NCBI GenBank assembly: GCA_015232575.1 | Contig: JADFZL010000003.1 | Coordinates: 192,001-256,000, forward strand | Origin: Candidatus Rifleibacteriota bacterium | Lineage (GTDB): Bacteria; Muiribacteriota; Ozemobacteria; Ozemobacterales; Ozemobacteraceae | Direction: 5' to 3' | DNA: 64,000 nucleotides | Shown here: one piece after another, positions 1,164 to 24,357 of the stretch | How the letters are laid out: each line of letters starts with the position of its first letter | Numbering within the stretch: position 1 is the stretch's first letter | Translations under genes and position numbers: made by a program | The notes under the pieces: model-generated | The model's input: only the letters and a program-made list of their open reading frames with translations | Told to the model about the DNA's origin: nothing | The model's database searches: none

Positions 1164-2093
1164 TTAATCCCCGAATTCGGAGGGTTTGATTTTTGATAGA
1201 TAATCGGTCAGCAGACGGTGTTTTCTATTTGCTGATTTTTTTTCTTTCTGATAAAGGCAAAAACAATCTTCTGGCAGTGCCAGTTTTGGAAATATTTCCT
1301 TTAAAAGACCATCATTCAACTCTTTCATTATGCTGTATTTTGGAAGAAGCGCAATTCCGATTCCTTCAACGGCTGCTGTGATCATTCCCCGCACGTGATT
1401 TACAGCAATAATCTGGCTCAGGGTGGGTCTTGATTCATGCGGCAAACTTGAAAGAAAATGTTCCCACCATTTCCCGTCTTTATCGAGAGAAAGAATTGGA
1501 GCAGATTCCAGAAAAGATAAGGTTTTTGATTCTACTGATAACAGAAGTTCAGGGCTGATAACAAGTACATATTTTTCACGGAAAAGCGGTGTTCGCGAGA
1601 TGCCTTTTATTCGATGCTCATTGCAATCAATTATAACATCAAGTTCATCACGAATAAGTGGATTAATCAAATCATGGCTCATGAGAAAATCTATTTCCAT
1701 TCCTGGATTTTTTTCCATAAAAGGTTTTATATGTTTCATAAGGATTGTGCAGCCAAATTCTACATTTGATCCAAGACGTAAATATCCTTTTCCTTTTTCC
1801 TGAAGCATTTTTATGGAATCTGTTGCATCTTCAAGTGAATAGAATGAATTTTCACATGCCTGGTATAGTTGCTTTCCAGCCTCAGTTAGCTTCAGAGACT
1901 TGCCTCTCCTTATAAAAAGCAGAGTGCCCATGAAAGTTTCGATCTTCCTGACCGAATGACTTACAGCAGACTGTGAAATGCAAAGCCGCTCTGCAGCAGA
2001 AGAAAATCCGCCAGTTTGAGCGACTGCAAAAAAAGGCCGCAACGGTGGAATATCAAAAACAGGAGAATTTGAAGTAAGATTCTTTTTCATCAA
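1164..2093 (-). CDS. LysR-family transcriptional regulator
   Basis: N-terminal HTH (LCISQSAVSHSVRKIE) and a LysR substrate-binding-like C-terminus. Confidence 0.8.
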   Translation of the reverse strand: MMKKNLTSNSPVFDIPPLRPFFAVAQTGGFSSAAERLCISQSAVSHSVRKIETFMGTLLFIRRGKSLKLTEAGKQLYQACENSFYSLEDATDSIKMLQEKGKGYLRLGSNVEFGCTILMKHIKPFMEKNPGMEIDFLMSHDLINPLIRDELDVIIDCNEHRIKGISRTPLFREKYVLVISPELLLSVESKTLSFLESAPILSLDKDGKWWEHFLSSLPHESRPTLSQIIAVNHVRGMITAAVEGIGIALLPKYSIMKELNDGLLKEIFPKLALPEDCFCLYQKEKKSANRKHRLLTDYLSKIKPSEFGD

Positions 2094-2278
2094 TATGTTG
2101 AATACACAGAATTAAATAAAGTGAAGAAAATCAGCGGTATTATAACATGCAACCGATTAAATATGAAAAAATGCCGAATAATTTTTCGTCCAAAAAGATT
2201 GATATTCATATTTTAAAAAGGTAAAATAAAAGGAAGATTAGTTTAAATTTTTTGGAAATAAATACAGGAGAGACATTA

Positions 2279-2734
2279 ATGGATATTCAAACTTACAAAA
2301 AGACACTTGAATTAGCTATAAAGAATGAGATTGAAGCAGCTGAATTTTATCAGGGAGTTGCAGAAAAGACGAAAGATTCCAATGTGAAATCTATTTTTTC
2401 AGAATTAGCCGGGGAAGAACGTAAACACCGCACTCAACTTGAAAACTTTCTTAAATCTGGCGAGAAAATTCTGAAAATAAACCCTGTTGAAGACTACAAA
2501 TTTTCAGAAACGCTCGAAAGCCCGAAATTGTCTCTGCAGATGAAACCGGCTGATGCTATTGCTCTGGCGATGAAAAAAGAAGAAGAAGCCATGAATATGT
2601 ACAAGAAGTTTGCAGGTTCATGTGTAGACAAAGAACAGAAAGAAATTTTTGAAAGTCTTTCCCGTATGGAGCAGACCCACAAAACGCGCTTAGAAGGAAT
2701 ATATACTGACATAGCATTCCCGGAAGCCTGGTAA
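2279..2734 (+). CDS. Rubrerythrin-like / ferritin-like diiron domain protein
   Basis: Four-helix ferritin-like pattern with E...ExxH motifs (EERKH, EQTH). Probable start at ATG 2279, 8 nt after AGGAGAG. Confidence 0.6.
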   Translation: MDIQTYKKTLELAIKNEIEAAEFYQGVAEKTKDSNVKSIFSELAGEERKHRTQLENFLKSGEKILKINPVEDYKFSETLESPKLSLQMKPADAIALAMKKEEEAMNMYKKFAGSCVDKEQKEIFESLSRMEQTHKTRLEGIYTDIAFPEAW

Positions 2735-3031: not shown

Positions 3032-3090
3032 AACGACCCTTACCTTATTCAAGGCATAACCATGGACAGGGTAAGGGTTGTCGTTTTATG
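3032..3090. terminator. Hairpin AACGACCCTTACC...GGTAAGGGTTGTCGTT followed by TTTTAT
   Basis: 13-bp inverted repeat read directly. The T-run is on the + strand. It overlaps the selD stop codon. Confidence 0.4.
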
Positions 3091-4132
3091 AAACGATGAT
3101 TTTTTTCCCACCAGAATGCAGGACTTTGCCGACTATTGAATTTGTTACTTGTTTTTGGGAAAGCAAGTTGATAAGTAGTGGCAATTCCGATTCAGGAAGG
3201 GAAATCAGCAATCCTCCGGATGTCTGAGGATCGAACAATACATCTATCATATCCAGAGCAATCCCTGGATGAAAATCAATCATTCCCTGGCGGTATTTTT
3301 TATTGCGGTATGCACCGCCAGGTACCATTCCCATCTGTGCATATTCCAGAGCCTCAGGAATTATGGGAAGCGAAGAAGAATCTATTTCGACCGTCACATC
3401 TGAATTTTCAACCATTTCAGCAAGATGCCCCAAAAATCCAAACCCTGTTATATCTGTACATGCATTTGCTGAAACCTGCATCATTGCATGTGATGCTTCT
3501 CTGTTAAGAGTTATCATAATTGTTTCTGCAGTCTTTATTGCTTCGGCAGAAGCCAGATCTGCTTTGAGGGCGGTATTTATGATACCGGTGCCGAGTGGTT
3601 TTGTCAGTACAAGTGAATCACCCGGCTTCATTCCGGAATTTCGAAGAAACTTGTCCGGATGAACAATTCCGGTGACAGAAAGACCGTATTTTATTTCTTT
3701 GTCGGTAATGCTGTGGCCTCCGACAAGTGAAACCTGAGTTTCATTCAGAACGGCCAGACCACCTTTAATGATTTCACGAAGAACGCTCAAATCCAGTCCA
3801 TCAGATGGAAATGCCACTAGATTCATTGCTGTGACAGGTTTGCCGCCCATTGCGTAGACATCGCTTAAAGCATTTGCAGCAGCAATTTTTCCGAAGGTAA
3901 ATGGATCGTCAACAATTGGTGTGAAAAAATCTACCGTTTGTACAAGAGCTATTTCATTTGTAAGCTTAAAGATTCCAGCATCTTCATTGCCTTTGAAGTC
4001 AGCAAGAGTCTGCGGGCTTTTATAATACACAAGTCCGCACAGAGCTTTATCCAGCAACTCTGGATTCAACTTAGCTGCTCAACCGGCAGCGGTAGCCATG
4101 CTTGTAAGTCTAATAATGTTTTTTTCGTTCAT
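3086..4132 (-). CDS. selD: Selenide, water dikinase SelD (selenoprotein; in-frame UGA-Sec at 4081..4079)
   Basis: The track ORF 3086..4069 begins with TTG inside the gene. Manual extension in the same frame gives MNEKNIIRLTSMATAAG-U-AAKLNPELL, where TGA sits at the position of the catalytic Cys/Sec of SelD (E. coli GAGCGCK). ATG at 4132. Confidence 0.85.
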
Positions 4133-4272
4133 TGTATTATCCTTATTATGATATTGTACATCTGATGAAATAAAATAAGTTTGAGAACCCTTACCGCCAA
4201 AAATAATTTAATTGTATATGAATTTCCATTTTAGTTATGCGTGTTTCCGAAAATGATAACATCAATTCAAAC

Positions 4273-4381
4273 GGCCTTGTAACGATTTCATATTCGTTGT
4301 TTTCCAGGGTGCATTACCGTATTTTCTACTTATTCTAACCTTTCGGATATCTCTACCTTCGGTCGAGATGACAATAAATAG
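4273..4381. repeat. Intergenic palindromic repeat (MITE-like family), copy A
   Basis: Shares CCTTGTAACGATTTCA...GTGCATTAC...ATTTTCTAC...ACCTTTCGGA.ATCTCT...GGTCGAGATGACAA.AAATAG with copy B at 5881..6023. Confidence 0.7.
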
Positions 4382-4401
4382 TTCGCCTGGAGGGCGATAA
4401 T

Positions 4402-4638
4402 TTAAACATTCCAGACATGAATTTCTTCGAATTCAACATTGTTATTATTAAAAATTGCTAATGAAGCTTCTTTGTTTTTTGAATCTATGCAAATGGCAAC
4501 TCCGCAATCAGAGCTGAATTCTCTAGGTGTTGGAATAGTTTCGAATGATATGCCAACCGATTTAAGAGCTTTTTCAGCTTTTAATGCAAAATAACTTGAA
4601 TAAAATGTGAAAACAATTTTCACTTTTTGAAAATCCAA
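4402..4638 (-). CDS. DUF3343-family small protein (selenium/sulfur-metabolism associated)
   Basis: 78 aa with a conserved SSDCG motif. Paralogue of 16222..16473. Lies between csd and selD. Confidence 0.6.
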   Translation of the reverse strand: MDFQKVKIVFTFYSSYFALKAEKALKSVGISFETIPTPREFSSDCGVAICIDSKNKEASLAIFNNNNVEFEEIHVWNV

Positions 4639-4699
4639 CTTTCATTTTTTTGCATGTGATTTTACTTTGCTTTTTTAATTTGTGATCTCATGCAAGCAT

Positions 4700-5848
4700 T
4701 CAGGCAAAGATAATCGATTTTAAGGATTCAATAAAGAAAATAATATTTTCTTTCGTTGTGAAAAAGCCTGGGCTTAATCGTACTGTTCCGCCTGGATAGG
4801 TACCTGTAGTTTTGTGTGCCAGTGGAGAACAATGAAGACCAGTTCTCGTCATAATCGAAAATTCTTTATCTAGTTTATGTCCGATTGTTGAAGAATTGAT
4901 TCCGACAACATTAAAGGAAATTGTACCAGTTCTGTCAGCGGAATTATCTGGTCCGTATACTTTTACTTCTTTGATTTCAGAAAGCATATCCAAAGTTAAT
5001 TTTGCAAGAGAAATTTCATGTTCATGGATATTTTCAATGCCGATTTCGTTAATAAAATTTACTCCGGCAGCAAGACCAGCGATTCCCGGGGTATTTGGAG
5101 TTCCACTTTCGAGACTGTCAGGAAGAAACTCAGGTTGAACTTCAAGTTCAGAATTGCTTCCCGTTCCGCCTTGTAAAAGAGATTCTAATTGTATGTTTTT
5201 TCCAATACAGATTCCGCCGATACCCTGTGGGCCAAGCATTGATTTGTGACCTGTAAACGTAAGAATGTCGATAAAATCTTTTTCTATATGAATCGGAATT
5301 AGTCCGGCAGTTTGAGCTGAATCAACCATGAAAGTGATATTTTTTTTTCTGCAGAAAGCGCCAATCATCTTCAGAGGTTGTAATGCTCCGGTAACATTCG
5401 AGGCGTGTGAAACGACGAGAAGCTTTGTTTTTTCAGAAATTTCATTCAAAAAAGATTCATCAGAAAGAATTCCGAATTTATTTGCCTTGAGAACGTTGAT
5501 TTTGATTCCGATTTTTTGCTCAAGATTTCTGAGCGGACGCATGACCGAATTATGTTCAAGTCCTGATACTGAAACGCTATCGCCTGCATTCAACAATCCT
5601 TTTAAGGCAATATTTATTGCGTGCGTAGCATTTGAAGTAAAAACAAGACGCTGCGAATCTGATAATCCGAAAAATGAAGCCAGTTGCTCTCTTGCATTAA
5701 AAATAAGTCTTGCTGCATCAAGCGACATGGCGTGTCCTGACCGACCCGGGTTCCCACCGGTTTGTTGCATGCACCTGCACACAGCATCAATTACAGCTGG
5801 AGGTTTCGGCCAGGACGTAGCGGAATTATCAAGATAAACTAAGTTCAT
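4700..5848 (-). CDS. Class V aminotransferase: cysteine desulfurase / selenocysteine lyase family
   Basis: PLP-enzyme motifs (TGHKSMLGPQGIGG). Resembles the cysteine-desulfurase family commonly adjacent to selD. Likely start ATG 5848 (MNLVYLDNSATS); the track starts at TTG 5878. Confidence 0.75.
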   Translation of the reverse strand: MNLVYLDNSATSWPKPPAVIDAVCRCMQQTGGNPGRSGHAMSLDAARLIFNAREQLASFFGLSDSQRLVFTSNATHAINIALKGLLNAGDSVSVSGLEHNSVMRPLRNLEQKIGIKINVLKANKFGILSDESFLNEISEKTKLLVVSHASNVTGALQPLKMIGAFCRKKNITFMVDSAQTAGLIPIHIEKDFIDILTFTGHKSMLGPQGIGGICIGKNIQLESLLQGGTGSNSELEVQPEFLPDSLESGTPNTPGIAGLAAGVNFINEIGIENIHEHEISLAKLTLDMLSEIKEVKVYGPDNSADRTGTISFNVVGINSSTIGHKLDKEFSIMTRTGLHCSPLAHKTTGTYPGGTVRLSPGFFTTKENIIFFIESLKSIIFA

Positions 5849-5880
5849 TGTATAGGAATTTTCATAATATGAATTCAACC

Positions 5881-6023
5881 CCTTGTAACGATTTCAGATT
5901 CATTGTCTTCCAGAGTGCATTACTGCATTTTGCTGTCATTTCGACCGAAGGGAGAAATCTCGTATTTTCTACCTGATCTGACCTTTCGGAGATATCTCTC
6001 TTTGGTCGAGATGACAAAAATAG
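5881..6023. repeat. Intergenic palindromic repeat (MITE-like family), copy B (full length with TIRs TGTCATTTCGACCGAAGG / CTTTGGTCGAGATGACA)
   Basis: Terminal inverted repeats and internal palindromes read directly. Matches copies A, C and D. Confidence 0.7.
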
Positions 6024-6044
6024 TCCGCTAGAATGGCGTTAATT

Positions 6045-6263
6045 TCACTGATTTTTCAGGAGAAGTTTGAAAGTGTCGTCTGATGAATCAAGCATTTCAA
6101 CTTTCCAACCTTCTTTATTGGACATTCTGGAAACATTCTCAACGGCTGCTTCTGAATCAACAATTACTTCAATTTCGCCCGTTTTCATTTCTCTGATTTT
6201 TTTCAGGGTTATGAGTACTGGTTGTGGGCAGGAAAGCCCTCTGGCATCAATTAATTCAGGCAT
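6045..6263 (-). CDS. yedF: TusA-like sulfur/selenium carrier YedF (short form, CPxP motif)
   Basis: GLSCPQP motif. 72 aa. Adjacent to yedE. Confidence 0.75.
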   Translation of the reverse strand: MPELIDARGLSCPQPVLITLKKIREMKTGEIEVIVDSEAAVENVSRMSNKEGWKVEMLDSSDDTFKLLLKNQ

Positions 6264-7359
6264 TTTTTCCTCCTGTAGATTTTTCTCTCATGAATAACCC
6301 GATAATAAGACAGAATACAAGACCTGCAATAACTGCAGTGGAGCCATTCTTTCCCAAACCATCGGGTGAACTTGCAAGCATGAAGTTATGAGAAAACGCT
6401 GCACCAGTAATCAATCCAAATGAAAATACTGCCGCATCGCCGTCACCTTCACCTGACAGAAACAACTGTCTTCCGGGACATCCACCTGCAAGGCAGAACG
6501 CAAATCCGGAAAGAACCATTCCAAGAAAGTTCCACAAAGAATCGACGTGGGCAATTGGCTGTCCAGACATTCCCGGGTTAAACTTTCCAATCACAAGATT
6601 GAATATGAAAGCAGCAGCTACTAATGACAATATTCCAGAAAATAGGTGGAACTGTTTGAACAAAATTAAATCTCTTATGGCACCCACTGTACAAAATCTG
6701 CTTCTCTGTGCAAGAAAGCCAATCAGCAAGCCAGCTGCAATTGAAAAATATAACGGCGCATGCATTGAGCCGGGTCCTTTAAGACTGTAAAAGATAAAAC
6801 CGCTGCTTTCTTTATCTGCAATTTGAGGATTCATGAAAAGTGCTGCCAGCAAAAGAACCATAAGACCAGGCATTATCAACCCTGTCGGAAAAGACGTTTT
6901 TTCTGATCTTCCAAGTGTGTATCCGCTTCTCAAAAATAAAGTGCCTGCAAAGACGCCGGTAAAGAGTCCGAGGAAACCAATAACAGCGTTAAGATCACCT
7001 GCCGATATTCGCAGAAGAGCTCGCCATGGGCAGCCTAAAAATACAAGTGCTCCGATCATCGCGAAAACTCCAAGCATGAATCGAACCAAAGGGCTTGAGC
7101 CGCCTCTCGGCTTGAATTCAGAAAACAAAAGTGCCGAAAGAAAAGATCCCAGTACAAAACCTGGTATTTCAGGCCTTATGTATTGTACAAGGGCAGCCTT
7201 GTGCAATCCAAGCGCACCGGTTACGTCCCGTAGAAAGCATGCAACGCAGACACCCATGTTTCCAGGGTTTCCCATTTTCTGAAGAAAAACCGCTGTTAAT
7301 CCAATAATAGCACCAACAACGATAATTCCAGTACTCGACGAAAAAAAATTCTTCTTCAA
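6256..7359 (-). CDS. yedE: YedE/YeeE-family membrane protein (putative selenium compound transporter)
   Basis: Polytopic membrane protein with the duplicated YedE-type repeat. Located between selB and yedF. Confidence 0.75.
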   Translation of the reverse strand: MKKNFFSSSTGIIVVGAIIGLTAVFLQKMGNPGNMGVCVACFLRDVTGALGLHKAALVQYIRPEIPGFVLGSFLSALLFSEFKPRGGSSPLVRFMLGVFAMIGALVFLGCPWRALLRISAGDLNAVIGFLGLFTGVFAGTLFLRSGYTLGRSEKTSFPTGLIMPGLMVLLLAALFMNPQIADKESSGFIFYSLKGPGSMHAPLYFSIAAGLLIGFLAQRSRFCTVGAIRDLILFKQFHLFSGILSLVAAAFIFNLVIGKFNPGMSGQPIAHVDSLWNFLGMVLSGFAFCLAGGCPGRQLFLSGEGDGDAAVFSFGLITGAAFSHNFMLASSPDGLGKNGSTAVIAGLVFCLIIGLFMREKSTGGKNA

Positions 7360-7362
7360 CTT

Positions 7363-9321
7363 CTATTCCTCCTGTTTTGGTTTGTTGATATTCGTTTTCA
7401 AAAACCTGAAATCGCCGTCTCTTCTGGTCAAACCTTCAGCATCAAAGTGTGCAAGCAGCAGCAGAGAAATCTTTCTATTTCCATTAACTAAATCTCTGAA
7501 ATCACTGACTTTTATGCCTTCTTTTTGTCCAGAAAGCTTTTCAATCAGTTTATTTCTGCAAGCACTAACAACCGAGGAATGAACATAACTGTCTTCGATT
7601 TTAATTATTTTTCCGGAAGAGACAAAGTGATGAAGTATTGCTTTCAGTTCTTTTTCAGCAATATTTTCTTTGTCAGCCAGAGATTGTATTTGGCTTGAGA
7701 GCGGGGTTTGCATTCCGCATTCCAGGAAGTAATTTTCCATCACCCGAACATTTTTTGCTGTTTTTGGATCAACCTTTCCTGTGTCATCAGCTGCAAACCA
7801 TGTTTTTGAAGATTCACGAAGTTTTTCTTTTTCAACAAGACCATTTAATATAGCCAGAAGGATCTCATCTGAAGATGATTTCTTTTCGAGCTTTAGTGTA
7901 CTTCTTATTTCATCAATGTTAATTCCTTTTTCAGAAAGCGGATTTCTCTTTCTGAAATCTTTAACTGCGGTTAAAATTCCGTTTCTGATATTTTCAAGAC
8001 ATATCTGTGAAACCAGCACCGGAGAGTCTTTTGTGTCGTATCGTACAATTCCTCTTAAAATTCTACTGTCTACTAACCTTAAAATACTATCAATGGAAAT
8101 ATTCAGCTTTTCTGCAATTTCCCTTACCATCATGGGCTTAAGTGATTTTCTTACTTCAAGTGATATAAGTTCAGAAAGTTTATTTTTTGCAACGAGTTCA
8201 AGTTCATTAATTAGTTTTTCAGGTCTTCGCCTGTGATGAAGCGGGGCAGCATCAATTATTTCTCCGCCGCCAATGGTTAAATCACAGGACGAATTTCGTA
8301 TTACAAATTTATCTCCATGTTGAAGGTAGATCGGCGTTTCAAAATGAATTTGTACAAGTGCAGATTCGCCGGTAGTAATTCTATTTTTGTTTATCAGGTG
8401 AATTTTTACCTGATGTTCGTAAGTACCGGTGTGAAAAATTACCTTTGACCAGATTCCAAGTTCACACTTTTTGGCGTACACATTTAATTTCGCATCTGCA
8501 ATGAGCGCATTTTTCAGTATTCTGTCTGATATTATCAGTCCGCGAGAAAATTCAGCTTTTTCAAGTCCGACAAGATTTATTGAAGCTCTGTCGCCAGCTT
8601 GAACTGCATGAACTTCCTCGCCATGTCTTTCCATTCTTCTGACTCTGAGTTCGCGCGGATTCTGGGACAAAAGAAATACATTGTTTTCCTTTTCAATTTT
8701 TCCGCCGATTACTGTTCCGGTTACAATTGTTCCGAAACCGCTTTTGCTGAATATCCGGTCAATGTACATGCGGAAAATGCCCTCAGGTGAACGGCTTTCG
8801 GAAGCTGAATAAATTTTCTGGATGGTATCTTTAAGTTCTGCAATTCCCTGACCGGTTTTTGCAGAGACTTTAATAATGGGGGAATCTTTCAGGAAAGAGT
8901 TACTAAGTAAATCAATAACATCAATTTCGCAGAGTTCAAGGAGTTCGTCATCTACCAGATCTGATTTGGTAAGTAAAACAATGCCTTTTTTTATTCCTAG
9001 GATTTCCATGATCTGGAGGTGTTCGATGGTCTGAGGCATTACGCTGCTGTCGGCAGCTATGACAAGTAGAACAAAGTCAATACCTGCTGCACCGCTGACC
9101 ATTGTATGGATAAAATCACGGTGCCCTGGTACATCAATGATTCCGATTTTTCCGTCATCGGGCATTGGAAGGCTTGCAAAGCCAAGGTGAATGGTGATTC
9201 CGCGCTCTTTTTCTTCTTTGTGCGTATCGCACTCAATGCCAGTGAGAGCCTTGATTAATGCTGTTTTTCCATGATCGACGTGACCCGCCGTTCCCATAAT
9301 GAGGTGTTTCACGTCCGCCAC
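7363..9321 (-). CDS. selB: Selenocysteine-specific elongation factor SelB
   Basis: GTPase motifs (GHVDHGKT, DVPGH, TKSD) plus a long C-terminal winged-helix extension. 652 aa. Confidence 0.9.
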   Translation of the reverse strand: MADVKHLIMGTAGHVDHGKTALIKALTGIECDTHKEEKERGITIHLGFASLPMPDDGKIGIIDVPGHRDFIHTMVSGAAGIDFVLLVIAADSSVMPQTIEHLQIMEILGIKKGIVLLTKSDLVDDELLELCEIDVIDLLSNSFLKDSPIIKVSAKTGQGIAELKDTIQKIYSASESRSPEGIFRMYIDRIFSKSGFGTIVTGTVIGGKIEKENNVFLLSQNPRELRVRRMERHGEEVHAVQAGDRASINLVGLEKAEFSRGLIISDRILKNALIADAKLNVYAKKCELGIWSKVIFHTGTYEHQVKIHLINKNRITTGESALVQIHFETPIYLQHGDKFVIRNSSCDLTIGGGEIIDAAPLHHRRRPEKLINELELVAKNKLSELISLEVRKSLKPMMVREIAEKLNISIDSILRLVDSRILRGIVRYDTKDSPVLVSQICLENIRNGILTAVKDFRKRNPLSEKGINIDEIRSTLKLEKKSSSDEILLAILNGLVEKEKLRESSKTWFAADDTGKVDPKTAKNVRVMENYFLECGMQTPLSSQIQSLADKENIAEKELKAILHHFVSSGKIIKIEDSYVHSSVVSACRNKLIEKLSGQKEGIKVSDFRDLVNGNRKISLLLLAHFDAEGLTRRDGDFRFLKTNINKPKQEE

Positions 9322-10724
9322 CTCTCGAAAACGGCTTTTTCGATGATTGATGCGATATATGGAATATCGTCCTCGTCGATTGTAAGTACATCAAAAACCA
9401 GTTCGCCCTGCCTGAGTATTCCCAGTATAGGCTTTTCAACGTTGAGAAGGTTGTGAAAAACGCGCGTTGCAAAGTCAGAGCGTTTCTGTTGAGACTTTTC
9501 TGACGAAGAAATTACAACGCCGAAACTTTTAATTTCAAGGTCGGGAAGGGTGCCACCGCCGCATTTTCCGGTAGTTTCAATTATTTCGGAAGAAATATTT
9601 TTTTCCTGCAGTTTATCATACAACAGTTTGGCTTTCTGATGGAGCTGTTTGTCGGTAGAATTCAGCATGGCAAATAGAGGAAGATTTTCTGCTATTTTCT
9701 TTTCATCCAGATAACACCTGGCAACGCTTGTCAATGTAGTAATGGTAAGCTTACAGACTCGTAAAGCCCGCATCAGCGGAGCTTTACTTAATCTACCAAC
9801 CAGATCTTTCCGTCCGCAGATTATTCCGGATTGCGGTCCACCGAAAAGTTTGTCGCCGCTGAAGAGAACCAGGTCAACTCCGCTTGATAAGGCGGACTTT
9901 ACATCGGGTTCATTTGAAAGCGGTATATTTTCCGGCTTGTACAAGAGTCCCGAACCGATATCATAAACGACAATCATTCCCCTTTTTTTTGCAAGTTCGA
10001 CAAGATCATCAAGTGACACTTCTTCAGTGAAACCATTGATCGAATAATTCGATTTATGCGCCTTAAATAAAATTTTTGTGTCGGCGGTAATAGCATTTTC
10101 ATAGTCAGAAATTCGTGTTCTGTTTGTTGTTCCGACTTCAATCATTTTTGCGCCTGAAGTTCCCATGATATCAGGAATTCTGAATGAACCGCCTATTTCT
10201 ATTAATTCACCGCGTGAAACAATGACTTCTTTATTTTTTGCAAGAGTACTTAGAGTTAATATGAGTCCGGCAGCGTTATTATTTACCACCAGAGCTTCTT
10301 CTGCGCCGGTAATATACTTTAGAATGGAATTAACATGTACGCTTCGGCTTCCACGGGTACCAGTTTCAAGATTCAATTCAAGGTTGGAATATCCGGACAG
10401 TGTTTCTGTGAGTTCTTCAAATATTCTTTTCCCGATAGGTGCTCGGCCAAGGTTTGTATGAATCAGAATTCCGGTAGCATTTATAACCCTGCGCAGAGAA
10501 GGACTGGATATATCTTTCGATACCTTTATAGCTTCTTCGATAATTTCATCTGAGCCTGGAACATCATCAAACTGATCATCAAGAATGCTTTTTCTAAGGG
10601 AATCAAGTGTTGAACGAAGCGAATGTTTAATTGTTTCAGAACCATATAAAGCGACTGCCGCAGATATTTTTTCATCCTGCAGAAGCTTATCAACGCCCGG
10701 AATCAATCGGAGTTTCTCTTTCAT
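9309..10724 (-). CDS. selA: L-seryl-tRNA(Sec) selenium transferase SelA
   Basis: SelA hallmark NATGILIHTNLGRAP; PLP-enzyme. Likely start ATG 10724 (MKEKLRLIPGV). Overlaps the selB start. Confidence 0.85.
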   Translation of the reverse strand: MKEKLRLIPGVDKLLQDEKISAAVALYGSETIKHSLRSTLDSLRKSILDDQFDDVPGSDEIIEEAIKVSKDISSPSLRRVINATGILIHTNLGRAPIGKRIFEELTETLSGYSNLELNLETGTRGSRSVHVNSILKYITGAEEALVVNNNAAGLILTLSTLAKNKEVIVSRGELIEIGGSFRIPDIMGTSGAKMIEVGTTNRTRISDYENAITADTKILFKAHKSNYSINGFTEEVSLDDLVELAKKRGMIVVYDIGSGLLYKPENIPLSNEPDVKSALSSGVDLVLFSGDKLFGGPQSGIICGRKDLVGRLSKAPLMRALRVCKLTITTLTSVARCYLDEKKIAENLPLFAMLNSTDKQLHQKAKLLYDKLQEKNISSEIIETTGKCGGGTLPDLEIKSFGVVISSSEKSQQKRSDFATRVFHNLLNVEKPILGILRQGELVFDVLTIDEDDIPYIASIIEKAVFERWRT

Positions 10725-10786
10725 ATTTTCCTGAAAATAATTAAATGCAGTCAATTATTGAATGATTGCATTTCAATAAAAATCAT

Positions 10787-10878
10787 CAGAGAGGGCAGGA
10801 ATCGAACCTGCCACAGACGGTATTATCCGCCCGCTACTGGTTTTGAAGACCAGCTGAAACACCAGTCCCGTCCTCTCC
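10787..10878 (-). tRNA. selC: tRNA-Sec (selC), anticodon UCA
   Basis: Reverse complement reads GGAGAGGACGGGACUGGUGUUUCAGCUGGUCUUCAAAACCAGUAGCGGGCGGAUAAUACCGUCUGUGGCAGGUUCGAUUCCUGCCCUCUCUG. It has a CUUCAAA anticodon loop, a long variable arm, a GGUUCGAUUCC T-loop and a ~92-nt length typical of tRNA-Sec. It lies immediately upstream of selA. Confidence 0.85.
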
Positions 10879-10972
10879 ATGCTTGTCTGTTAAGCGGACA
10901 AAATACTAAATGAAAAGAAACAAAAAGTCAACGAGTATTTTAATAATGAATTGAAAGCTGAATCATGGATTA

Positions 10973-12271: not shown

Positions 12272-12550
12272 TCATACCTTCCTTGCTTTACTTCGAAATT
12301 TGGGTGTTAGAAGCGGGATTAAGCATCGTAAAGCCCTATTCACAGATTCTGAATCCGGAAAATAGGTTAGAATATCTGGTTCAATAATTACTGCTCCTTC
12401 CTTTGGAAGCACCTCTTTTAAAACAGTAATACCGTCAGCCTCATGAACAGTTATAGTATAACCAGCTTGCATGGCTCTATGATGCTTGCCACGCACTCCA
12501 CCTGTAAAATCATATTCATCGCGGATTTTTGTATCCTCTATTTCCGTCAT
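12272..12550 (-). CDS. Putative BrnA-like antitoxin (partner of BrnT)
   Basis: 92-aa ORF starting at an ATG immediately after the BrnT TAA stop (TAAATG). This is the classic brnT-brnA order. Confidence 0.5.
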   Translation of the reverse strand: MTEIEDTKIRDEYDFTGGVRGKHHRAMQAGYTITVHEADGITVLKEVLPKEGAVIIEPDILTYFPDSESVNRALRCLIPLLTPKFRSKARKV

Positions 12551-12835
12551 TTAAATACTCCTTTCTTCATAAAATCTTCGCTCTGATGGGGTTGCCTTAC
12601 GGCAACTGATGATGCGTATTTGCGACTTGCGTTCAGTATAAACTACGACCAGCACGCGATTTTTGTCAGAGTCACCGATGTCAATAAGTCGCTGCTCAAC
12701 TTCCGAGTGATCAGGATCGGTCATCGTTATTGAAAAAGGATCAAGAAAGACCGTGGTCGCTTCATCAAAACCAACCCCGTGCTTTTTGAGATTCTTTTTG
12801 GCCTTTTCTCCATCCCATTCAAAGTTAATTTTCAT
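12551..12835 (-). CDS. brnT: BrnT-family toxin (DUF497, RelE/ParE-fold ribonuclease)
   Basis: 94 aa. The WDxxKxxxNxxKHGV N-terminus is characteristic of BrnT. Confidence 0.7.
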   Translation of the reverse strand: MKINFEWDGEKAKKNLKKHGVGFDEATTVFLDPFSITMTDPDHSEVEQRLIDIGDSDKNRVLVVVYTERKSQIRIISCRKATPSERRFYEERSI

Positions 12836-15632: not shown

Positions 15633-16247
15633 ATGGCAAAAACCGTTGATGCACGCGGATTAGCTTGTCCTCAGCCCGTTCTTCTGGCGAAAAAAGCCAT
15701 TGAGGAAAATGAGGAAGTCAAAATTCTTGTTGACAACGAGACAGCGGTTGAAAACATCCTCAGAATTGCTGCCAAAATGAACTGCAAGGTTCAAGTGAGT
15801 GAATCGCAGGGAAACACTCGGGAAGTAATGATAAAACGATCAACTGAAACATCTGTTTCAGTTATTGCTGAATCTGAAAAAGCGTGTATTGCAGATTCTG
15901 TGAAAAACAAGCGTAAGGTAGTGATTGTTTTGTCAGATAATTGTATGGGTAGGGGCGACGATCAATTAGGGGATATTCTGATTCGAAGTTTTCTGCATAC
16001 GATTTCAGAAATGTCTGTTAAACCAGCAAAGATAATATGCTACAATGCAGGTGTAAAGCTCGCAGCAAAGGGTTCGTCCGTAATTGATGACCTTCGCCGA
16101 CTGTCGGAAGTTGGGGTAGAAATTCTTGTTTGCGGAACCTGCGTTAAATTTTATGATATTGCCGATCAGATTGGTGTGGGGATTATTTCAAATATGTATG
16201 ATATTGCTGATTCTCTAACAAATGCAGATCATGTCCTCAAACCTTGA
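15633..16247 (+). CDS. yedF: Selenium metabolism protein YedF (long form: TusA-like N-domain + DsrE-like C-domain)
   Basis: N-terminal GLACPQP TusA motif and a C-terminal DsrE/DsrF-like domain. ~200 aa, matching the selenium-associated YedF architecture. Confidence 0.7.
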   Translation: MAKTVDARGLACPQPVLLAKKAIEENEEVKILVDNETAVENILRIAAKMNCKVQVSESQGNTREVMIKRSTETSVSVIAESEKACIADSVKNKRKVVIVLSDNCMGRGDDQLGDILIRSFLHTISEMSVKPAKIICYNAGVKLAAKGSSVIDDLRRLSEVGVEILVCGTCVKFYDIADQIGVGIISNMYDIADSLTNADHVLKP

Positions 16248-16553: not shown

Positions 16554-19235
16554 CTACGCTTTTTCCAGTTTACATGCGCAGACTTTGAATTCCGGGATCT
16601 TTGCTTCCGGGTCGAGTGCATTTATGGTCAGTTTATTGGCAGGGGCCTCTGAAAAATGGAAAGGCACAAAAGCCGTACCCTTGGGAATTCGATCTGTTAC
16701 GAAAGCTTTTGTTGTTATGTTTCCTCTGCGTGTTGTGACTTTTATGTTATCACTGTTAGATATTCCCAGACCTTTGGCATCTTCGACTGAAATCATTACG
16801 TGTGGACCTGCGAGATTATTCAGTCCCTCGGATTTTCTTGTCATGGTTCCGGTGTGGAAGTGCTGTAGAACTCTTCCTGTTGTAAGATAAACCGGATAAT
16901 CATTGTCAGGTATTTCTGCGGGGTTTTTGAATGGAATCGGAAACATTGCACCTTTGCCCCTGGTAAATTTTCCAATATGCAAAACAGGGGTTCCCGGATG
17001 CTCTTTTGTTGGACATGGCCAATGCAGGCCATTTCCAGCAAGCCGTCTGTAATCCATTCCTGCGTAGCTTGGAGTGCACTTTGCTAATTCATTAAAAATA
17101 TCTTCTGCTGAGTTATATTTCCAATTGTGACCCATTTTATTGGCCAGAAGTTGATGAATCTGCCAGTCATCCTTTGCTTCTCCGGGTGGCTCAACAGCCT
17201 TATATAATACTTGTACCCTTCTTTCTGTGTTGGTAAATGTACCAAGCTTTTCCGGCCACGTGGTAGCAGGAAGTACAACATGTGCAAGTTTTGCTGTTTC
17301 TGTAAGGAAAATATCTTGTACAACAAGAAAATCAAGTTTATTAAGACCAGCTTCGACATGATGAAGATCAGGGTCACTAAGCATTGGATTTTCACCCATG
17401 ATGTAGAAAGCCTTCATTTCACCGTTGTAAGCTTTGTCGATTGCTGTTGTAAGGGTCAATCCGTTTTCGGCACTAAGTTGACAACCCCAGAATTTTTCAA
17501 ATTTTTCTTTAATTTCGGGAAGGATAACTTTTTGATACCCTGTGTAAACAACAGGCAAAGCTCCAACATCGCAGGCGCCCTGGACATTTGATTGTCCTCG
17601 GAGAGGGTTAACTCCTCCGCCAATTTTTCCCATATTACCACAAAGCATTTGGAGGTTTGCACACGATTTTACATTATCCACACCTGTGGTATGTTGCGTA
17701 ATACCCATAGAATAGTATATTGCAGCTGTACCTGCTTTTCCAAACATCTGAGCAATTGCCTCAAGAGTTTTTGCAGGAATGCCAGAAATCTGTTCGACAT
17801 ACTCTGGAGAATATTTTTCAACCTCTGCTTTCAGTGCTTCATATCCTTCACATCTTTCGGCAATAAATTCTTTGTCTTCCCAACCGTTCTTTATGATGAC
17901 ATTCATAATTCCGTTAAGAACCGCAACATCTGTCCCAGGTCTTTGTGAAGCGTATATTTTTGCATAATTTGCCATTTTTATTCGTTTGGGATCAATAACA
18001 ATTATCTTCATTCCATCTTTTGCTGCTTTTTTGAGACGCGCACCAATAACCGGGTGTGTTTCGGAGGTATCTGAGCCGATAATAAGTGCAACATCACTTC
18101 TACCTATTCCAGCATAATCATTTGTCATTGCACCCGAACCAAAAGATAATGCCAGACCGGCAACTGTTGATGCATGGCACAATCGGGCACAATGATCAAC
18201 ATTGTTTGTACCGATTACGGTTCTGATGAATTTTTGAAAAGTATAGTTTTCTTCATTCGTTACTTTAGCGGATGAAAAGCCCATTATTGAGTTTGCACCA
18301 TTCTTTTGCTTAATATCAGTTAGCCTCGTTGCAATTATATCAAGAGCTTCATCCCAGGAGGCTTTTCTGAATGATCCGTCGTCAGTTTTGATCAGTGGAG
18401 TTGTCAATCTATCCTTATGATCAACAAAATCGTAGCCAAAACGTCCCTTTACACACAGCATACCGTTGTTAGACGGTGAGCCTTCCAAACCATTTACACG
18501 AACGATTTTGTTCTGTTTTGCATCAACATGAATTTCCATCTGACATCCAACACCGCAATAAGGGCAGACGCTGACGACTTTTTTTGTGTCCCAGTAACGC
18601 GCCATTCCTTTGGCTTTATTTTCTGTTATTGCACCCACGGGACAAATTTGAGAACATTCACCACACTGAACACAACTAGAATCACCCATTTTCTTGTCGT
18701 CATCAAAAATGACTTCTGTTCTGTGTCCCCTGTATCCAAAATTCAAAACATCGTTTGTAACAGTATTTTGACAGGCAGAAACACATCTTCCACAAGCGAT
18801 GCATTTGTTGCGATTAACCTGAAGAAATTCGGAACTATCATCAATATTCGGTTCAAAATCTGCATAATTCAGTGATGGCTTTTCAATGCCGAGATAATAA
18901 GCCGCATCCTGAAGTTCGCACTTTCCATTTTGCTGGCAGGCGATACAATCATGCGTTCCATTCGAAAGTAGAAGATCAATAACAAGTTTCTGCCCTTCCA
19001 AAGCTTTTTGTGATTTTGTCTGAATATTCATTCCTTCTTTAACAATCACAGAGCAGGATGTCTGAAGTCCTTTCATTCCTTCAACTTCCACGACACATGC
19101 ACGACATTTCCCTGCAACGCCCACCTTTTCGTGATAGCATAGAGAGGGAATATAAACTCCGTTTTTTCTTGCTGCCAGAAGAATGGTTTGTCCATCTTCA
19201 ACATTCAGTTTTTTTCCATTAATGAAAATTTGCAT
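16554..19235 (-). CDS. fdhA: Formate dehydrogenase catalytic subunit, Cys-containing paralogue (N-terminal 2Fe-2S/4Fe-4S NuoG-like module + Mo/W-bisPGD domain)
   Basis: 893 aa. N-terminal ferredoxin-like Cys clusters and the molybdopterin oxidoreductase core. The active-site segment reads VDHCARLCHASTVAGL, with Cys where the paralogue has UGA. RBS GGAGGAA. Confidence 0.85.
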   Translation of the reverse strand: MQIFINGKKLNVEDGQTILLAARKNGVYIPSLCYHEKVGVAGKCRACVVEVEGMKGLQTSCSVIVKEGMNIQTKSQKALEGQKLVIDLLLSNGTHDCIACQQNGKCELQDAAYYLGIEKPSLNYADFEPNIDDSSEFLQVNRNKCIACGRCVSACQNTVTNDVLNFGYRGHRTEVIFDDDKKMGDSSCVQCGECSQICPVGAITENKAKGMARYWDTKKVVSVCPYCGVGCQMEIHVDAKQNKIVRVNGLEGSPSNNGMLCVKGRFGYDFVDHKDRLTTPLIKTDDGSFRKASWDEALDIIATRLTDIKQKNGANSIMGFSSAKVTNEENYTFQKFIRTVIGTNNVDHCARLCHASTVAGLALSFGSGAMTNDYAGIGRSDVALIIGSDTSETHPVIGARLKKAAKDGMKIIVIDPKRIKMANYAKIYASQRPGTDVAVLNGIMNVIIKNGWEDKEFIAERCEGYEALKAEVEKYSPEYVEQISGIPAKTLEAIAQMFGKAGTAAIYYSMGITQHTTGVDNVKSCANLQMLCGNMGKIGGGVNPLRGQSNVQGACDVGALPVVYTGYQKVILPEIKEKFEKFWGCQLSAENGLTLTTAIDKAYNGEMKAFYIMGENPMLSDPDLHHVEAGLNKLDFLVVQDIFLTETAKLAHVVLPATTWPEKLGTFTNTERRVQVLYKAVEPPGEAKDDWQIHQLLANKMGHNWKYNSAEDIFNELAKCTPSYAGMDYRRLAGNGLHWPCPTKEHPGTPVLHIGKFTRGKGAMFPIPFKNPAEIPDNDYPVYLTTGRVLQHFHTGTMTRKSEGLNNLAGPHVMISVEDAKGLGISNSDNIKVTTRRGNITTKAFVTDRIPKGTAFVPFHFSEAPANKLTINALDPEAKIPEFKVCACKLEKA

Positions 19236-19971: not shown

Positions 19972-22656
19972 CTATGCTTTTTCCAGTTTACATGCGCAGA
20001 CCTTGTATTCCGGTATTTTTGCTTCCGGATCAAGTGCGTTAATGGTTAGTTTGTTGGCAGGAGCTTCGATGAAGTGGAAAGGCATAAAAGCAGTTCCTTT
20101 AGGAATTCGCTTTGTAACGAAAGCCTTAGTGGTAACGCTGCCGCGGCGGGTTGTTACTTTAACGGTTCCACTGTTTGAAACGCCTAGTTCAACGGCATCT
20201 TCTACTGAAATCATTACATGAGGTCCGGCAAGATTATTCAATCCTTCGGATTTTCTTGTCATGGTTCCGGTGTGGAAGTGCTGTAGAATTCTTCCGGTTG
20301 TCAGATAAACCGGATAGTCTTTGTCGGGTAATTCAGCGGGATCTTTGAATGGAATTGGGAATAATGTCCCTTTTCCCTTGGTGAATTTACCAATATGAAG
20401 AACAGGAGTACCAGGGTGTTCTTTTGTTGGACATGGCCAATGCAGACCTTTTCCTTCAAGTCTTTTGTAATCTAATCCGGCATAGCTCGGAGTGCATTTG
20501 GTCAATTCATCAAAGATATCTTCTGCGGTATTATATTTCCAGTTGTGACCCATTTTATTGGCCAGAAGTTGATGAATCTGCCAGTCATCTTTTGCTTCCC
20601 CGGGTGGTTCAACGGCTTTGTGCAACAATTGTACACGGCGTTCAGTATTAGTGAAGGTACCAAGTTTTTCGGGCCATGTACTGGCAGGAAGTACAACATG
20701 TGCCATTTTAGCTGTTTCCGTAAGGAAAATGTCTTCGACAACCAGGAAATCAAGCTTTTTGAGGGCTTCTTCAACATGGTGAAGATCTGGATCACTCAGC
20801 ATCGGATTTTCACCCATAATGTAGAATGACTTTACTTCTCCCTTGCCAGCTTTGTCTATGGCAACTGTAAGCGTTAATCCATTTTCAGCACTGAGCTGAC
20901 AACCCCAGAACTTTTCGAACTTTTCCTTGATTTCAGGAAGTGTAACTTTCTGATAAGCAGTGTAAACGACTGGAAGTCCGCCAACGTCACATGCGCCCTG
21001 GACGTTTGACTGTCCACGCAGCGGATTAACACCACCACCAACTTTACCCATATTGCCACAAATCATTTGCAGATTTGCACAAGATTTAACATTGTCAACA
21101 CCAGTGGTGTGCTGGGTAATGCCCATTGCGTAATAAATCGCTGCTGACTTTGCTTTTCCAAACATTTCTGCAATTGCTTCGAGGGTTTTTGCCGGGATAC
21201 CAGAAATCTTCTCAACGTGCTCAGGAGTGTATTTTTCTACTTCTGCTTTCAACGCTTCAAAACCTTCACATCTTTCAGCGATGAATTCTTTGTCTTCCCA
21301 GCCATTCTTGATGATTACATGCATAATTCCGTTAAGAACAGCAACATCTGTACCTGGTCTCTGAGCGGCATAGATTTTGGCGTAATCTGCCATTTTAATT
21401 TGTTTGGGATCAATAACAATTATTTTCAACCCATGTTTTGATGCCTTTTTCAAGCGGGCAGCAATTACCGGATGGGCTTCAGATGTATCGGAACCAATTA
21501 TTAGAGCAACTTCACTTTTACCAACTCCTGCGATATCATTTGTCATAGCTCCAGAACCAAAAGATGCGGCCAGACCGGCCACAGTGGAGCTGTGTCATAA
21601 TCGCGCACAGTGATCGACGTTATTCGTCCCTATCACTGTGCGAAAGAACTTTTGAAAAGTGTAGTTTTCTTCGTTTGTAACTTTTGCTGAAGAAAAACCC
21701 ATTAAAGAATTTGGACCATGTTTTTGTTTAATTTCAGAAAACTTTGTCGCTACTAATTCAATTGCTTCATCCCATGAAGCTTTTCTGAAAGAGCCATCAT
21801 TGTTTCTGATTAAAGGTGTAGTAAGTCTTTCCTTGTGATCTACAAAGTCATATCCAAAGCGGCCTTTTACACAAAGCATACCGTAATTGGATGGGGCGCT
21901 TTCAACGCCGTTGACCCGGACAATCTTGTTGATTTTCCGGTCGACATGAATTTCCATCTGGCAACCTACACCACAATAAGGACAAACTGAAGTCACTTTG
22001 TCAGTTTCCCAGTAACGCGCCATTCCTTTTGCTTTTTTCTCAGTTATTGCGCCAACTGGACAAATCTGAGAACATTCACCACACTGGACACAGGTGGAAT
22101 CACCCATCTTCTTGTCATCATCAAAAATGACTTCAGTGTTGTGTCCTCTGTAACCAAAATTCAAAACATCGTTTGTAACAGTATTCTGACATGCAGAAAC
22201 GCATCTTCCACAAGCGATGCACTTGTTTCGATCGACCTGAATAAATTCTGAGCTGTCATCAAGATTCGGTTCAAAATCAGCATAGTTCAATGAAGGTTTT
22301 TCAATGCCAAGATAATATGCGGCATCCTGAAGTTCGCACTTGCCGTTTTGCTGACAGGCAATACAATCGTGCGTTCCATTAGAAAGCAGAAGATCAATAA
22401 CAAGTTTCTGACCATCCACAGCTTTCTGGGATCTCGTCTGAATCTTCATTCCCTCTTTCACAATTACTGAACAGGATGTCTGAAGACCTTTCATCCCTTC
22501 AACCTCTACTACGCAGGCTCGGCATTTCCCTGCCACGCCAACCTTCTCATGGTAACAAAGAGAAGGAATATAAATTCCATTTTTCCTTGCGGCCTGAAGA
22601 ATGGTTTGCCCTTCTTCAGCCTGCAATTGCTTGTCATTGATGGTAATTAGCATCAA
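19972..22656 (-). CDS. fdhA: Formate dehydrogenase catalytic subunit, selenocysteine-containing (UGA-Sec at 21597..21595); the track shows it as two ORFs
   Basis: ORFs 21595..22656 and 19972..21582 are in the same frame, separated only by TGA. The joined translation VDHCARL-U-HSSTVAGLAAS aligns with the Cys paralogue's VDHCARL-C-HASTVAGL. A SECIS-like structure follows the UGA. Confidence 0.85.
21541..21594 (-). ncRNA. SECIS-like stem-loop immediately 3' of the fdhA UGA
   Basis: The RNA reads CACAG-CUCCA-CUGUG, then a 7-bp stem AGCUCCA...UGGAGCU enclosing GGCC-GGUCU-GGCC. The equivalent region of the Cys paralogue lacks this complementarity. Confidence 0.5.
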
Positions 22657-22763: not shown

Positions 22764-23450
22764 TTAGGATATACAGCCTGTCAGATCAGATTTCGAAAGA
22801 GCATATTTAAAAAATACTGACCTTGTGTTAAAAGAACCGCTATCTGAATTATCGACTGCAAAATTATAATCTTGTGGTACATTTATATTGAAAAGTATTT
22901 TTTCCCAGTCCATGTCAGAATTGCGAGCATCATATTCTTTGACTGAAACTTCAGAAAAAATAGACCTGATTGAAAACAATCCTGCACTTATAGCTTTATG
23001 CGTTGCAGGGAGACAATTCGTTGAATAAAGCGAAAACAATGGATTCAAACCACCGATAGTTCTTGGAATCACAACATCCATTTTTTCAGAAATACTCAGA
23101 AGAAAGGACGCAGCAGATTCTGAAATAAATGGCATGTCACAACCTGCAAGAAGAGCATAATCAGTATTTACATGATCAAGCCCGGTCATAAGCCCTCCCA
23201 GAGGTCCAGTGCAGAGGCGATCTTCAATGAAGTTAAAACCATCATTTTCTGGAAACTTTTCTCCTTCTGGAAAGCCAACAATATGAACTCTCTGGGTAAA
23301 ACAGGCAAGTTTCTTTGCGACATATAACCACATAGGAAAGCCTTGCCAGGACAGGAACTGTTTTTTTCTCCCCATTCTGATACTTTGTCCACCGACAAGC
23401 AAAAGTGCTTCAATTGGCAATCGGCAGTTTTTTTCATTTGTATCAGTCAC
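22764..23450 (-). CDS. mobA: Molybdenum cofactor guanylyltransferase MobA-like
   Basis: LLVGGQSIRMG motif typical of MobA. 228 aa. Confidence 0.7.
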   Translation of the reverse strand: MTDTNEKNCRLPIEALLLVGGQSIRMGRKKQFLSWQGFPMWLYVAKKLACFTQRVHIVGFPEGEKFPENDGFNFIEDRLCTGPLGGLMTGLDHVNTDYALLAGCDMPFISESAASFLLSISEKMDVVIPRTIGGLNPLFSLYSTNCLPATHKAISAGLFSIRSIFSEVSVKEYDARNSDMDWEKILFNINVPQDYNFAVDNSDSGSFNTRSVFFKYALSKSDLTGCIS

Positions 23451-23533
23451 TTGTTTTGTCCATCACTTTAATATTTCGAGTTACAGAAAATTCTAACATA
23501 ATCAATAATTAGTGTCAAAAAAGAACCCGGAGC

Positions 23534-24331
23534 TCATGAAACGCGCCATGAATGTGTATAAACGTTGAACCGTTCTCCTCTTGTAAAACCAATGGTAGTA
23601 AGATTAAGTGAATCAGCAAGCTGCAATGCTCCGGAAGTTGGTGCTGAAGGAGAAATTAGTATGGGAAATTTACCTCTGACCGCTTTTGTAACAATTTCTG
23701 TGCTGATTCTTCCTGTTTCCAGCATTATCGCTTTTGAATCTGATGGCCATCTGTTTTGCAGTTGCCACCCCAGAACCTTATCAACAGCATTGTGTCTGCC
23801 TATATCATCACAGACGAAAAGAATGTTATCGTTTTCAGCAATGGCAGCTGAGTGAACTCCGCCCGTTTTCCTGAAAGTAGATGATGCATTCTGAAGTTTT
23901 TTAACCAGTGAAAGAACTACATCTGAAGATATTCTTACATCAGATTCTATTTTCTGAAAAAATTTTGAATATATCGGAGAAACGGTAGTTAAACATCTAC
24001 CACAGCCTGTTGCGACAGATCGTACTGAATTAAAAAGATTTCCCTGTAAGCCTTCTTTCAGTATAATCTCAATCGAATTTGTCCGTTCGGAATAATTAAC
24101 ACTGTTAACGTCGCTCAAATTTTCTATTATACATTCACTGAAAAGAAATCCCAGTGCAAGCTGTTCTATGTAAGTCGGATTATATATAAGACGTGCAATT
24201 TCATTTCCGTTTACAAAAACAGCTAAAATACTTTCTTTTATTATCAGATCATCAATTTGAGAAAATTTTCCATTTTCAAATTTTTTTGCCTGATAATTCT
24301 CTATTGCAAATTCACTGCATTTTTCAACCAT
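23534..24331 (-). CDS. fdhD: Formate dehydrogenase accessory sulfurtransferase FdhD
   Basis: FdhD family signature (GGVHSAA...DIGRHNAVDK). Confidence 0.8.
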   Translation of the reverse strand: MVEKCSEFAIENYQAKKFENGKFSQIDDLIIKESILAVFVNGNEIARLIYNPTYIEQLALGFLFSECIIENLSDVNSVNYSERTNSIEIILKEGLQGNLFNSVRSVATGCGRCLTTVSPIYSKFFQKIESDVRISSDVVLSLVKKLQNASSTFRKTGGVHSAAIAENDNILFVCDDIGRHNAVDKVLGWQLQNRWPSDSKAIMLETGRISTEIVTKAVRGKFPILISPSAPTSGALQLADSLNLTTIGFTRGERFNVYTHSWRVS

Positions 24332-24357
24332 TACATGAAGCCCTTGTCGTTAAGGTT

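Follow-up and report, generated by a model that had tools for sequence, protein, structure and literature searches.

Positions 192,001 to 256,000 of contig JADFZL010000003.1 from a Candidatus Rifleibacteriota bacterium (NCBI GenBank assembly GCA_015232575.1) form a stretch of 64,000 nucleotides (nt), hereafter called the window, to which all coordinates in this text refer. On its minus strand lies a selD gene, predicted to encode a selenophosphate synthetase, whose frame contains a TGA near the 5' end. This locus raises the question whether the TGA is read as selenocysteine (Sec) at the catalytic position of SelD or whether the gene is defective or simply starts further downstream. The most probable answer, to which we assign a probability of about 0.9, is that the UGA at 4081..4079 specifies selenocysteine in the catalytic N-terminal loop by ordinary bacterial Sec recoding. 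SelD is the second most widespread selenoprotein family of prokaryotes and carries Sec in an N-terminal flexible loop (2026 review, PMC13188914), and Sec-type genes make up 19% of SelD genes in a reference set of prokaryotic genomes, with Sec “always in the same position” (Mariotti et al., PMC4561486). Sec-containing SelD is well known, and what is new here is only this divergent member.

Reading frame and start of selD

The following features define the gene.

3086..4132, minus strand: full coding sequence of selD, 348 codons including Sec18, stop codon TAA at 3088..3086, predicted product selenide, water dikinase (selenophosphate synthetase)
4130..4132, minus strand: start codon ATG, the earliest start codon past the upstream in-frame stop
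4079..4081, minus strand: in-frame TGA, predicted Sec18 codon at the catalytic Sec/Cys position (alignment and codons of homologues)
4070..4072, minus strand: Lys21 codon AAG, equivalent of Lys20 in Escherichia coli SelD (alignment)
4067..4069, minus strand: TTG, start of the listed open reading frame (ORF), internal Leu22 codon of the full protein (frame and translation)
4140..4144, minus strand: Shine-Dalgarno-like AAGGA with a 7-nt spacer to ATG 4132 (read from the sequence, putative function)

A single minus-strand frame holds the ATG at 4132..4130, the TGA at 4081..4079 and the listed ORF 3086..4069, and this ORF opens with a TTG four codons past the TGA. The minus strand reads ...AAGGATAATACA ATG AAC GAA AAA AAC ATT ATT AGA CTT ACA AGC ATG GCT ACC GCT GCC GGT TGA GCA GCT AAG TTG AAT CCA GAG TTG CTG GAT AAA GCT CTG TGC GGA..., and translation through the TGA gives MNEKNIIRLTSMATAAG*AAKLNPELLDKALCG..., the part from the TGA onwards beginning with *AAKLNPELL. 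Full-length Cys-type SelD homologues have roughly 13-26 residues ahead of the Cys, a range into which the window protein falls with ATG 4132, probably the start codon actually used.

SelD identity and the catalytic position

For all searches SelD was used as a 348-residue protein with Cys put in place of the TGA. This protein matches the SelD equivalog model TIGR00476 from model position 1 with 376.7 bits (E 8.4e-113, cutoff 125, residues 8-315) and NF002098 with 313.7 bits (1.3e-93, cutoff 299, residues 4-342), and hence both models above their cutoffs. The closest solved structures are E. coli SelD (3u0o, 5.8e-69, residues 4-320) and Aquifex aeolicus SelD (2yye, 4.8e-66). In the phmmer alignment residues 4-21 lie over residues 3-20 of E. 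coli SelD, so that the TGA matches Cys17, Lys21 matches Lys20 and the catalytic position is followed by Lys three residues later. The catalytic loop reads 'ltsmataagCaakl' in the query, 'ltqyshgagCgcki' in E. coli and 'llklvrssgCaakv' in A. aeolicus. The TGA also lies over the Cys of the A. aeolicus 2yye crystal form, a position that is Sec13 in the native SelD. The codon of Lys21 is AAA or AAG in 77 of 77 homologues, with AA (columns 10-11) invariant and A or G as third base. From its sequence, the selD product is predicted to be a selenophosphate synthetase with ATP- and selenide-dependent activity.

These results bear on an earlier interpretation that was made from the letters and a program-made ORF list and that we call the sequence-only reading. 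It had proposed that ATG 4132 and the TGA are in frame with ORF 3086..4069, had written out the read-through peptide and had placed the TGA at the catalytic Cys of E. coli SelD; the frame check agrees, the translation is identical and phmmer sets the TGA on the same residue. It had further named two outcomes that would speak against it, namely a region upstream of 4069 unlike SelD and a TGA off the Cys/Sec position. Neither is the case, as the 21 residues there are homologous to the SelD N-terminus according to TIGR00476, NF002098 and phmmer, and the TGA stands exactly at the position of Cys17 and Sec13.

TGA and Cys among SelD homologues

The state of the catalytic codon in related genes was taken from a SelD-alignment scan with one genome per GTDB species, using the 80 most similar loci among the matches listed (at least 600). 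The codon was readable in 76 of these best 80 loci, and it is TGA in 61 and a Cys codon (TGC or TGT) in 15, always at the same codon. An enlarged set comprises 69 unique Sec-type and 53 unique Cys-type selD sequences. The UGA of the window gene is thus in frame and stands opposite Cys in some homologues and opposite UGA in others, in line with the remark of the sequence-only reading that many SelD proteins have Sec here.

The protein databases give a different picture of the same family. Among the 120 best matches, 34 are full-length Cys forms (..GAGCAAKL..) and 86 are without the N-terminus. Of the latter, 53 start at [MLV]xPxxL, four codons past the Sec position and like the window ORF, which points to gene callers stopping at the Sec codon, and 33 start further downstream. 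The expectation that the ORF track and annotation pipelines shorten selD is thereby confirmed.

The closest relative is protein P0001 on locus L081 (a Logan contig), with 63% identity the maximum in the protein collection searched. Its gene reads ATG AGC GGT GAT GAA ATC ATC AGG CTG ACG ACG ACC GTG TCA GCC GCC GGC TGA GCG GCC AAA TTG AGT CCA GAG TTG CTG GAC and has the same architecture as the window selD. Scans of genome and metagenome contigs gave no SelD more than 54% identical among the matches listed, where nearer relatives may be missed in either scan and the metagenome scan was seeded on the window SelD's own peptide words. The lineage of the host is poorly sampled, SelD and the neighbouring proteins being without close relatives in the collections searched, and look-ups of the exact products of FdhA and of truncated SelD returned no record.

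The hairpin downstream of the UGA

Bacterial selenocysteine insertion sequences (SECIS) are recovered by structure prediction in Sec-type SelD genes (Mariotti et al., PMC4561486), and a hairpin of this kind is predicted in the window gene as well.

4037..4078, minus strand: predicted bacterial SECIS stem-loop within the coding sequence, full extent of the minimum free energy (MFE) fold, -14.7 kcal/mol (RNA folding and comparison)
4049..4065, minus strand: upper stem AUCCAG (4065..4060) / CUGGAU (4054..4049) with loop AGUUG (4059..4055) (RNA folding)

The 47 nt from the UGA onwards fold as ...(((.(..((((..((((((.....))))))..))))..)))).. at -14.7 kcal/mol, and positions 11-39 fold at -9.6 kcal/mol. 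Numbered from the U of the UGA, the upper stem pairs A17-U18-C19-C20-A21-G22 with C28-U29-G30-G31-A32-U33 and encloses the loop A23-G24-U25-U26-G27. In the E. coli fdhF element, G23 and U24 of the loop, counted in the same way, are the contact of SelB; in selD, G24 and U25 would presumably take this role. The sequence-only reading had pointed to a hairpin-capable segment 3' of the UGA. A hairpin indeed exists there, whereas its extent had been given too short, as the stem AUCCAG/CUGGAU ends two bases past the quoted segment and the lower stem reaches 4037. A CAGC/GCUG pairing, which we read into that segment and which the sequence-only reading itself did not give, was tried as a separate candidate and rejected, since it is 51.7% paired in 62 Sec-type sequences, does not exceed shuffles or slid registers and is without covariation.

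The bacterial SECIS (bSECIS) model demands a loop of 3-9 nt, a stem of 4-16 bp, a distance of 16-37 nt between UGA and loop and an MFE of at most -7.5 kcal/mol, with a G at loop position 1 or 2 that mostly has G or U after it (PMC13188914). With its 5-nt loop, six Watson-Crick pairs, G-U at loop positions 2-3, a distance of 19 nt and -14.7 kcal/mol, the selD hairpin lies within all four of the published constraints, which is the outcome of the SECIS check that the sequence-only reading had proposed. The model is permissive: among all 2891 TGA triplets of the window, our own implementation accepts 5.5%, and only 1.1% fold at -14.7 kcal/mol or below. Dinucleotide shuffles, by which the hairpin alone was not significant, were replaced by three other comparisons, namely this survey of TGA contexts, synonymous recoding and the contrast between Sec-type and Cys-type genes. 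In the recoding null, codons for the same peptide are resampled by the codon usage of the window, which is fairer for coding DNA, and only 1.6-3.2% of such recodings fold as stably as the selD hairpin.

The contrast between the two types of genes is the strongest evidence for the hairpin. The composition-controlled folding z of nt 11-45 has a mean of -1.72 in the 69 Sec-type and of +0.14 in the 53 Cys-type sequences (Mann-Whitney p = 1.4e-15), and the window selD has -1.99. In the register defined by pair 17-33, all six pairs of the upper stem are formed in 24 of the 69 unique Sec-type sequences and in 0 of the 53 Cys-type sequences. Furthermore, when codon-aligned 48-mers from 62 Sec-type selD genes were compared in a gap-free alignment, the window structure was 65% paired, and sliding the register by 1-3 nt gave no more than 47%. 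Changes on both sides of the stem occur at pair 17-33 (GC 19, GU 6, CG 5, AU 4) and at pair 18-32 (UA 25, GC 7, CG 2, UG 2). In L081, G17-C33 replaces the A17-U33 of the window, a compensatory exchange made up of a non-synonymous change (Asn to Ser) and a wobble change in Asp, and the loop AGUUG is identical. The hairpin of the window gene shares its register with Desulfobacterota-like and Acidobacteriota genes; in many selD genes of the Firmicutes the hairpin is centred about 3 nt further 5'.

Decoding machinery and a second selenoprotein gene

Reading a UGA as selenocysteine requires dedicated genes, and these stand next to selD.

10787..10879, minus strand: tRNA-Sec (selC), anticodon UCA (Rfam RF01852, 58.6 bits against a gathering threshold of 47; ARAGORN tRNA-SeC, tca)
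9309..10754, minus strand: selA, selenocysteine synthase (PF03841 2.4e-127, PF12390)
7363..9321, minus strand: selB (TIGR00475 8.5e-101; winged-helix domain PF09107, SelB-wing_3, at residues 600-641)
4402..10879, minus strand: selenium cluster of tRNA-Sec, selA, selB, yedE, tusA/yedF, cysteine desulfurase and Se_S_carrier

Together with selD, the genes for tRNA-Sec, SelA and SelB all lie within 3086..10879, and the Sec reading proposed earlier thus finds its decoding genes in the window. After selB the cluster continues with a selenium transporter of the YedE family (TIGR04112), a TusA/YedF protein, a cysteine desulfurase and a Se/S-carrier protein (PF11823). The cysteine desulfurase matches TIGR01977 and is SclA-like, yet under the cutoff of that model. 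Between the cluster and selD is a 270-nt gap with a terminator-like hairpin (4397..4383). L081 has the same set of selenium genes in another order. A tblastn search of the window gave no second copy of selD there.

A second gene of the window also contains an in-frame TGA.

19972..22656, minus strand: fdhA, alpha subunit of an NAD-dependent-type formate dehydrogenase, with TGA at 21597..21595 in VDHCARL*HSSTV

The ORF track splits this fdhA into pieces of 353 and 536 residues. Its UGA is followed by the hairpin UGUGGCC / GGUCU / GGCCGCA (-18.2 kcal/mol, region 21572..21583). Each of the two Sec-UGAs in the window thus has a 5-nt loop with the pattern NGUNN behind it, starting 19 nt after the UGA in selD (AGUUG) and 18 nt after it in fdhA (GGUCU); the G-U is G24-U25 in the former and G23-U24 in the latter. 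The shared loop and the near-equal spacing fit one SelB recognising both messages, which suggests that NGUNN is the recognition motif of the host SelB.

The Sec-type gene has a tandem paralogue at 16554..19235 (minus strand), which carries Cys at the same residue (HCARLCHASTV) and whose product is 87.6% identical to that of 19972..22656. Such a pair of Sec- and Cys-containing FdhA isoenzymes could allow growth with or without selenium.

As a mechanism we propose that translation of selD would begin at ATG 4132 and that, as the ribosome nears the UGA, the winged-helix domain at the C-terminal end of SelB would bind the hairpin 4065..4049 with its loop AGUUG. The tRNA-Sec would be charged via SelA, and SelB-GTP would deliver Sec-tRNA(Sec). 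Sec18 would then be inserted in place of termination, giving a G-U-A-A-K loop as the Sec version of the G-C-G-C-K of E. coli. SelD would in turn make the selenophosphate needed by SelA, and as a Sec-containing SelD supplies the selenophosphate for SelA, the enzyme would depend on its own product.

Alternative explanations

The TGA could also have arisen from a Cys codon of the ancestral gene by nonsense mutation, in which case selD would be a pseudogene, inactive or being lost. TGA is one base away from TGC and TGT, and Cys-type homologues exist (the 15 of 76 scorable loci mentioned above). However, the frame is otherwise intact over 330 codons and reaches 377 bits to the SelD equivalog, TGA is the majority state in the nearest homologues, the hairpin 3' of it is typical of Sec-type and not of Cys-type genes, and L081 keeps both TGA and hairpin. 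Moreover, selenophosphate is needed by the selA, selB, tRNA-Sec and Sec-type fdhA of the window, and we regard a pseudogene as very improbable. Another proposal would be that the true start is TTG 4069 or lies downstream of it, the 17 codons before the TGA being a separate mini-ORF or non-coding. TTG is a permitted start codon and is the one chosen by gene callers in 53 of 120 homologues, but the product would be without the equivalents of Cys17/Sec and Lys20 and hence no selenophosphate synthetase; both Cys17 and Lys20 are essential according to mutagenesis of E. coli SelD. In addition, Sec-type and Cys-type homologues both conserve the protein sequence that the 17 upstream codons encode (IRLT...AAG), AAGGA stands ahead of ATG 4132 (the one start inspected for such a motif), and the shortened starts in the databases are artefacts of the way gene callers handle TGA. 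A start at or after TTG 4069 is therefore hardly credible, and a reinitiation at this codon that would yield a truncated SelD with a separate function finds no support. The UGA might finally be read outside the Sec system, either in a reassigned code (Trp or Gly) or by near-cognate decoding that places Cys or Trp there. When selenium is scarce, Sec codons are known to be read through at a low level without Sec, and this could help to bootstrap a Sec-dependent SelD. Against this stand the dedicated tRNA-Sec, SelA and SelB and the presence 3' of the UGA of the hairpin class of Sec-type genes. An alternative genetic code was ruled out, since TGA ends 16 of the 32 long frames in the window and is thus an ordinary stop in a standard code. 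We consider a reading of this UGA outside the Sec system highly unlikely.

Some results weigh against selenocysteine as the reading of the selD UGA, most of them through the hairpin. Taken by itself, the selD hairpin does not stand out from dinucleotide shuffles (z -1.0 to -1.8). A search of 3950..4200 against Rfam at an E-value of up to 10 gave chance-level matches only (Pseudomon-groES, ROSE_2 and a long non-coding RNA), though no family exists for such an element. Over the 62 Sec-type sequences RNAalifold found no consensus structure, as the Sec-type selD family uses two or more hairpin registers. The covariation score of these sequences is above 500 of 500 shuffles, but relatedness alone can exceed a shuffle control, and the conserved peptide P-x-x-L-D constrains part of the stem bases. 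Furthermore, the fdhF SECIS has a bulged U under the loop, whereas the selD hairpin is without it and has a symmetric 2x2 internal loop (GA/AA) between its upper and lower stems, and the G-U of selD at 24-25 is one base off the 23-24 of fdhF. Finally, the actual insertion of Sec at the UGA is what we infer from gene content, alignment and RNA structure.

A more far-reaching interpretation starts from the 270-nt gap with its terminator-like hairpin, which sets selD apart from the rest of the sel cluster. Here selD would be a transcription unit of its own, whose Sec codon would make selenophosphate synthesis self-amplifying and selenium-gated, with UGA and hairpin acting as a selenium-sensing switch in addition to their role in recoding. 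If this were true, full-length Sec-SelD and Sec-type FdhA would be made in the presence of selenium; in its absence translation would end after 17 codons, and the cell would rely on the neighbouring Cys-type paralogue of FdhA (87.6% identical). We put this forward as a speculative and rather doubtful idea.

Neighbouring genes

Other genes and features of this part of the window are the following.

1164..2093, minus strand: regulator of the LysR family, flanking selD
2252..2734, plus strand: rubrerythrin/EncFtn-like protein, flanking selD
4180..4200, minus strand: TATTTTTG, in the gap upstream of selD
12272..12835, minus strand, and 15633..16247, plus strand: BrnT-family toxin (PF04365) and TusA-DsrE fusion, between the sel cluster and the fdh genes
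22764..26132, minus strand: accessory genes of the fdh operon, coding for a MobA-like NTP transferase, FdhD and a fused NuoE/NuoF-like subunit

The LysR-family regulator is GcvA-like and reaches 95.6 bits with the LysR model for selenium metabolism, whose cutoff is 250. Both this regulator and the rubrerythrin/EncFtn-like protein adjoin selD in L081 too. The TATTTTTG segment fits what we take to be the Bacteroidota-type -7 promoter motif TAnnTTTG, a consensus that may not be that of the host. A 92-residue ORF beside the BrnT-family toxin is a possible antitoxin. The NuoE/NuoF-like fusion consists of a 2Fe-2S thioredoxin-like domain and a 51K FMN domain. The window has a low G+C content of 38.8%, and the host encodes a TonB-dependent receptor.

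Consequences for annotation

selD should be annotated over 3086..4132, with Sec at 4081..4079 entered as a transl_except, and neither as a 327-residue protein without catalytic loop nor as a pseudogene. Likewise, fdhA should be annotated as 19972..22656 with Sec at 21597..21595. The host can accordingly be described as a selenocysteine user that has two or more selenoproteins and keeps its genes for selenium handling in a compact cluster. The knowledge of SelD and of Sec recoding is unchanged by the selD of the window. For bacterial SECIS models it adds a divergent data point, with the AGUUG loop and with two NGUNN elements in one genome at near-equal spacing.

Comparison with known systems

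The nearest known counterparts are the Sec-type SelD proteins, such as those of A. aeolicus (2yye/2zod, crystallised as Sec13Cys) and Haemophilus influenzae. The window SelD belongs to the same AIRS/AIRS_C fold family and shares with them the single Sec in an N-terminal glycine-rich loop followed by x-x-Lys, the in-frame stem-loop and the co-occurrence with selA, selB and selC. It differs in its divergent sequence and in the loop motif, for which G-A-G-U-A-[AS]-K is the commoner form and which is T-A-A-G-U-A-A-K in the window. E. coli SelD, which is of the Cys17 type (3u0o), catalyses the reaction predicted for the window SelD, and its catalytic loop and Lys20 align with the window protein. 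However, it uses Cys in G-C-G-C-K and has neither UGA nor SECIS, whereas the window gene has UGA in G-U-A-A-K. With the SECIS of E. coli fdhF and the bSECIS model of Zhang and Gladyshev, the window element shares a stem-loop 3' of the UGA and a small loop with G-U at a distance of about 19 nt. Of the two hairpins in the window, the one of fdhA (loop GGUCU) resembles the E. coli fdhF element more than the one of selD does.

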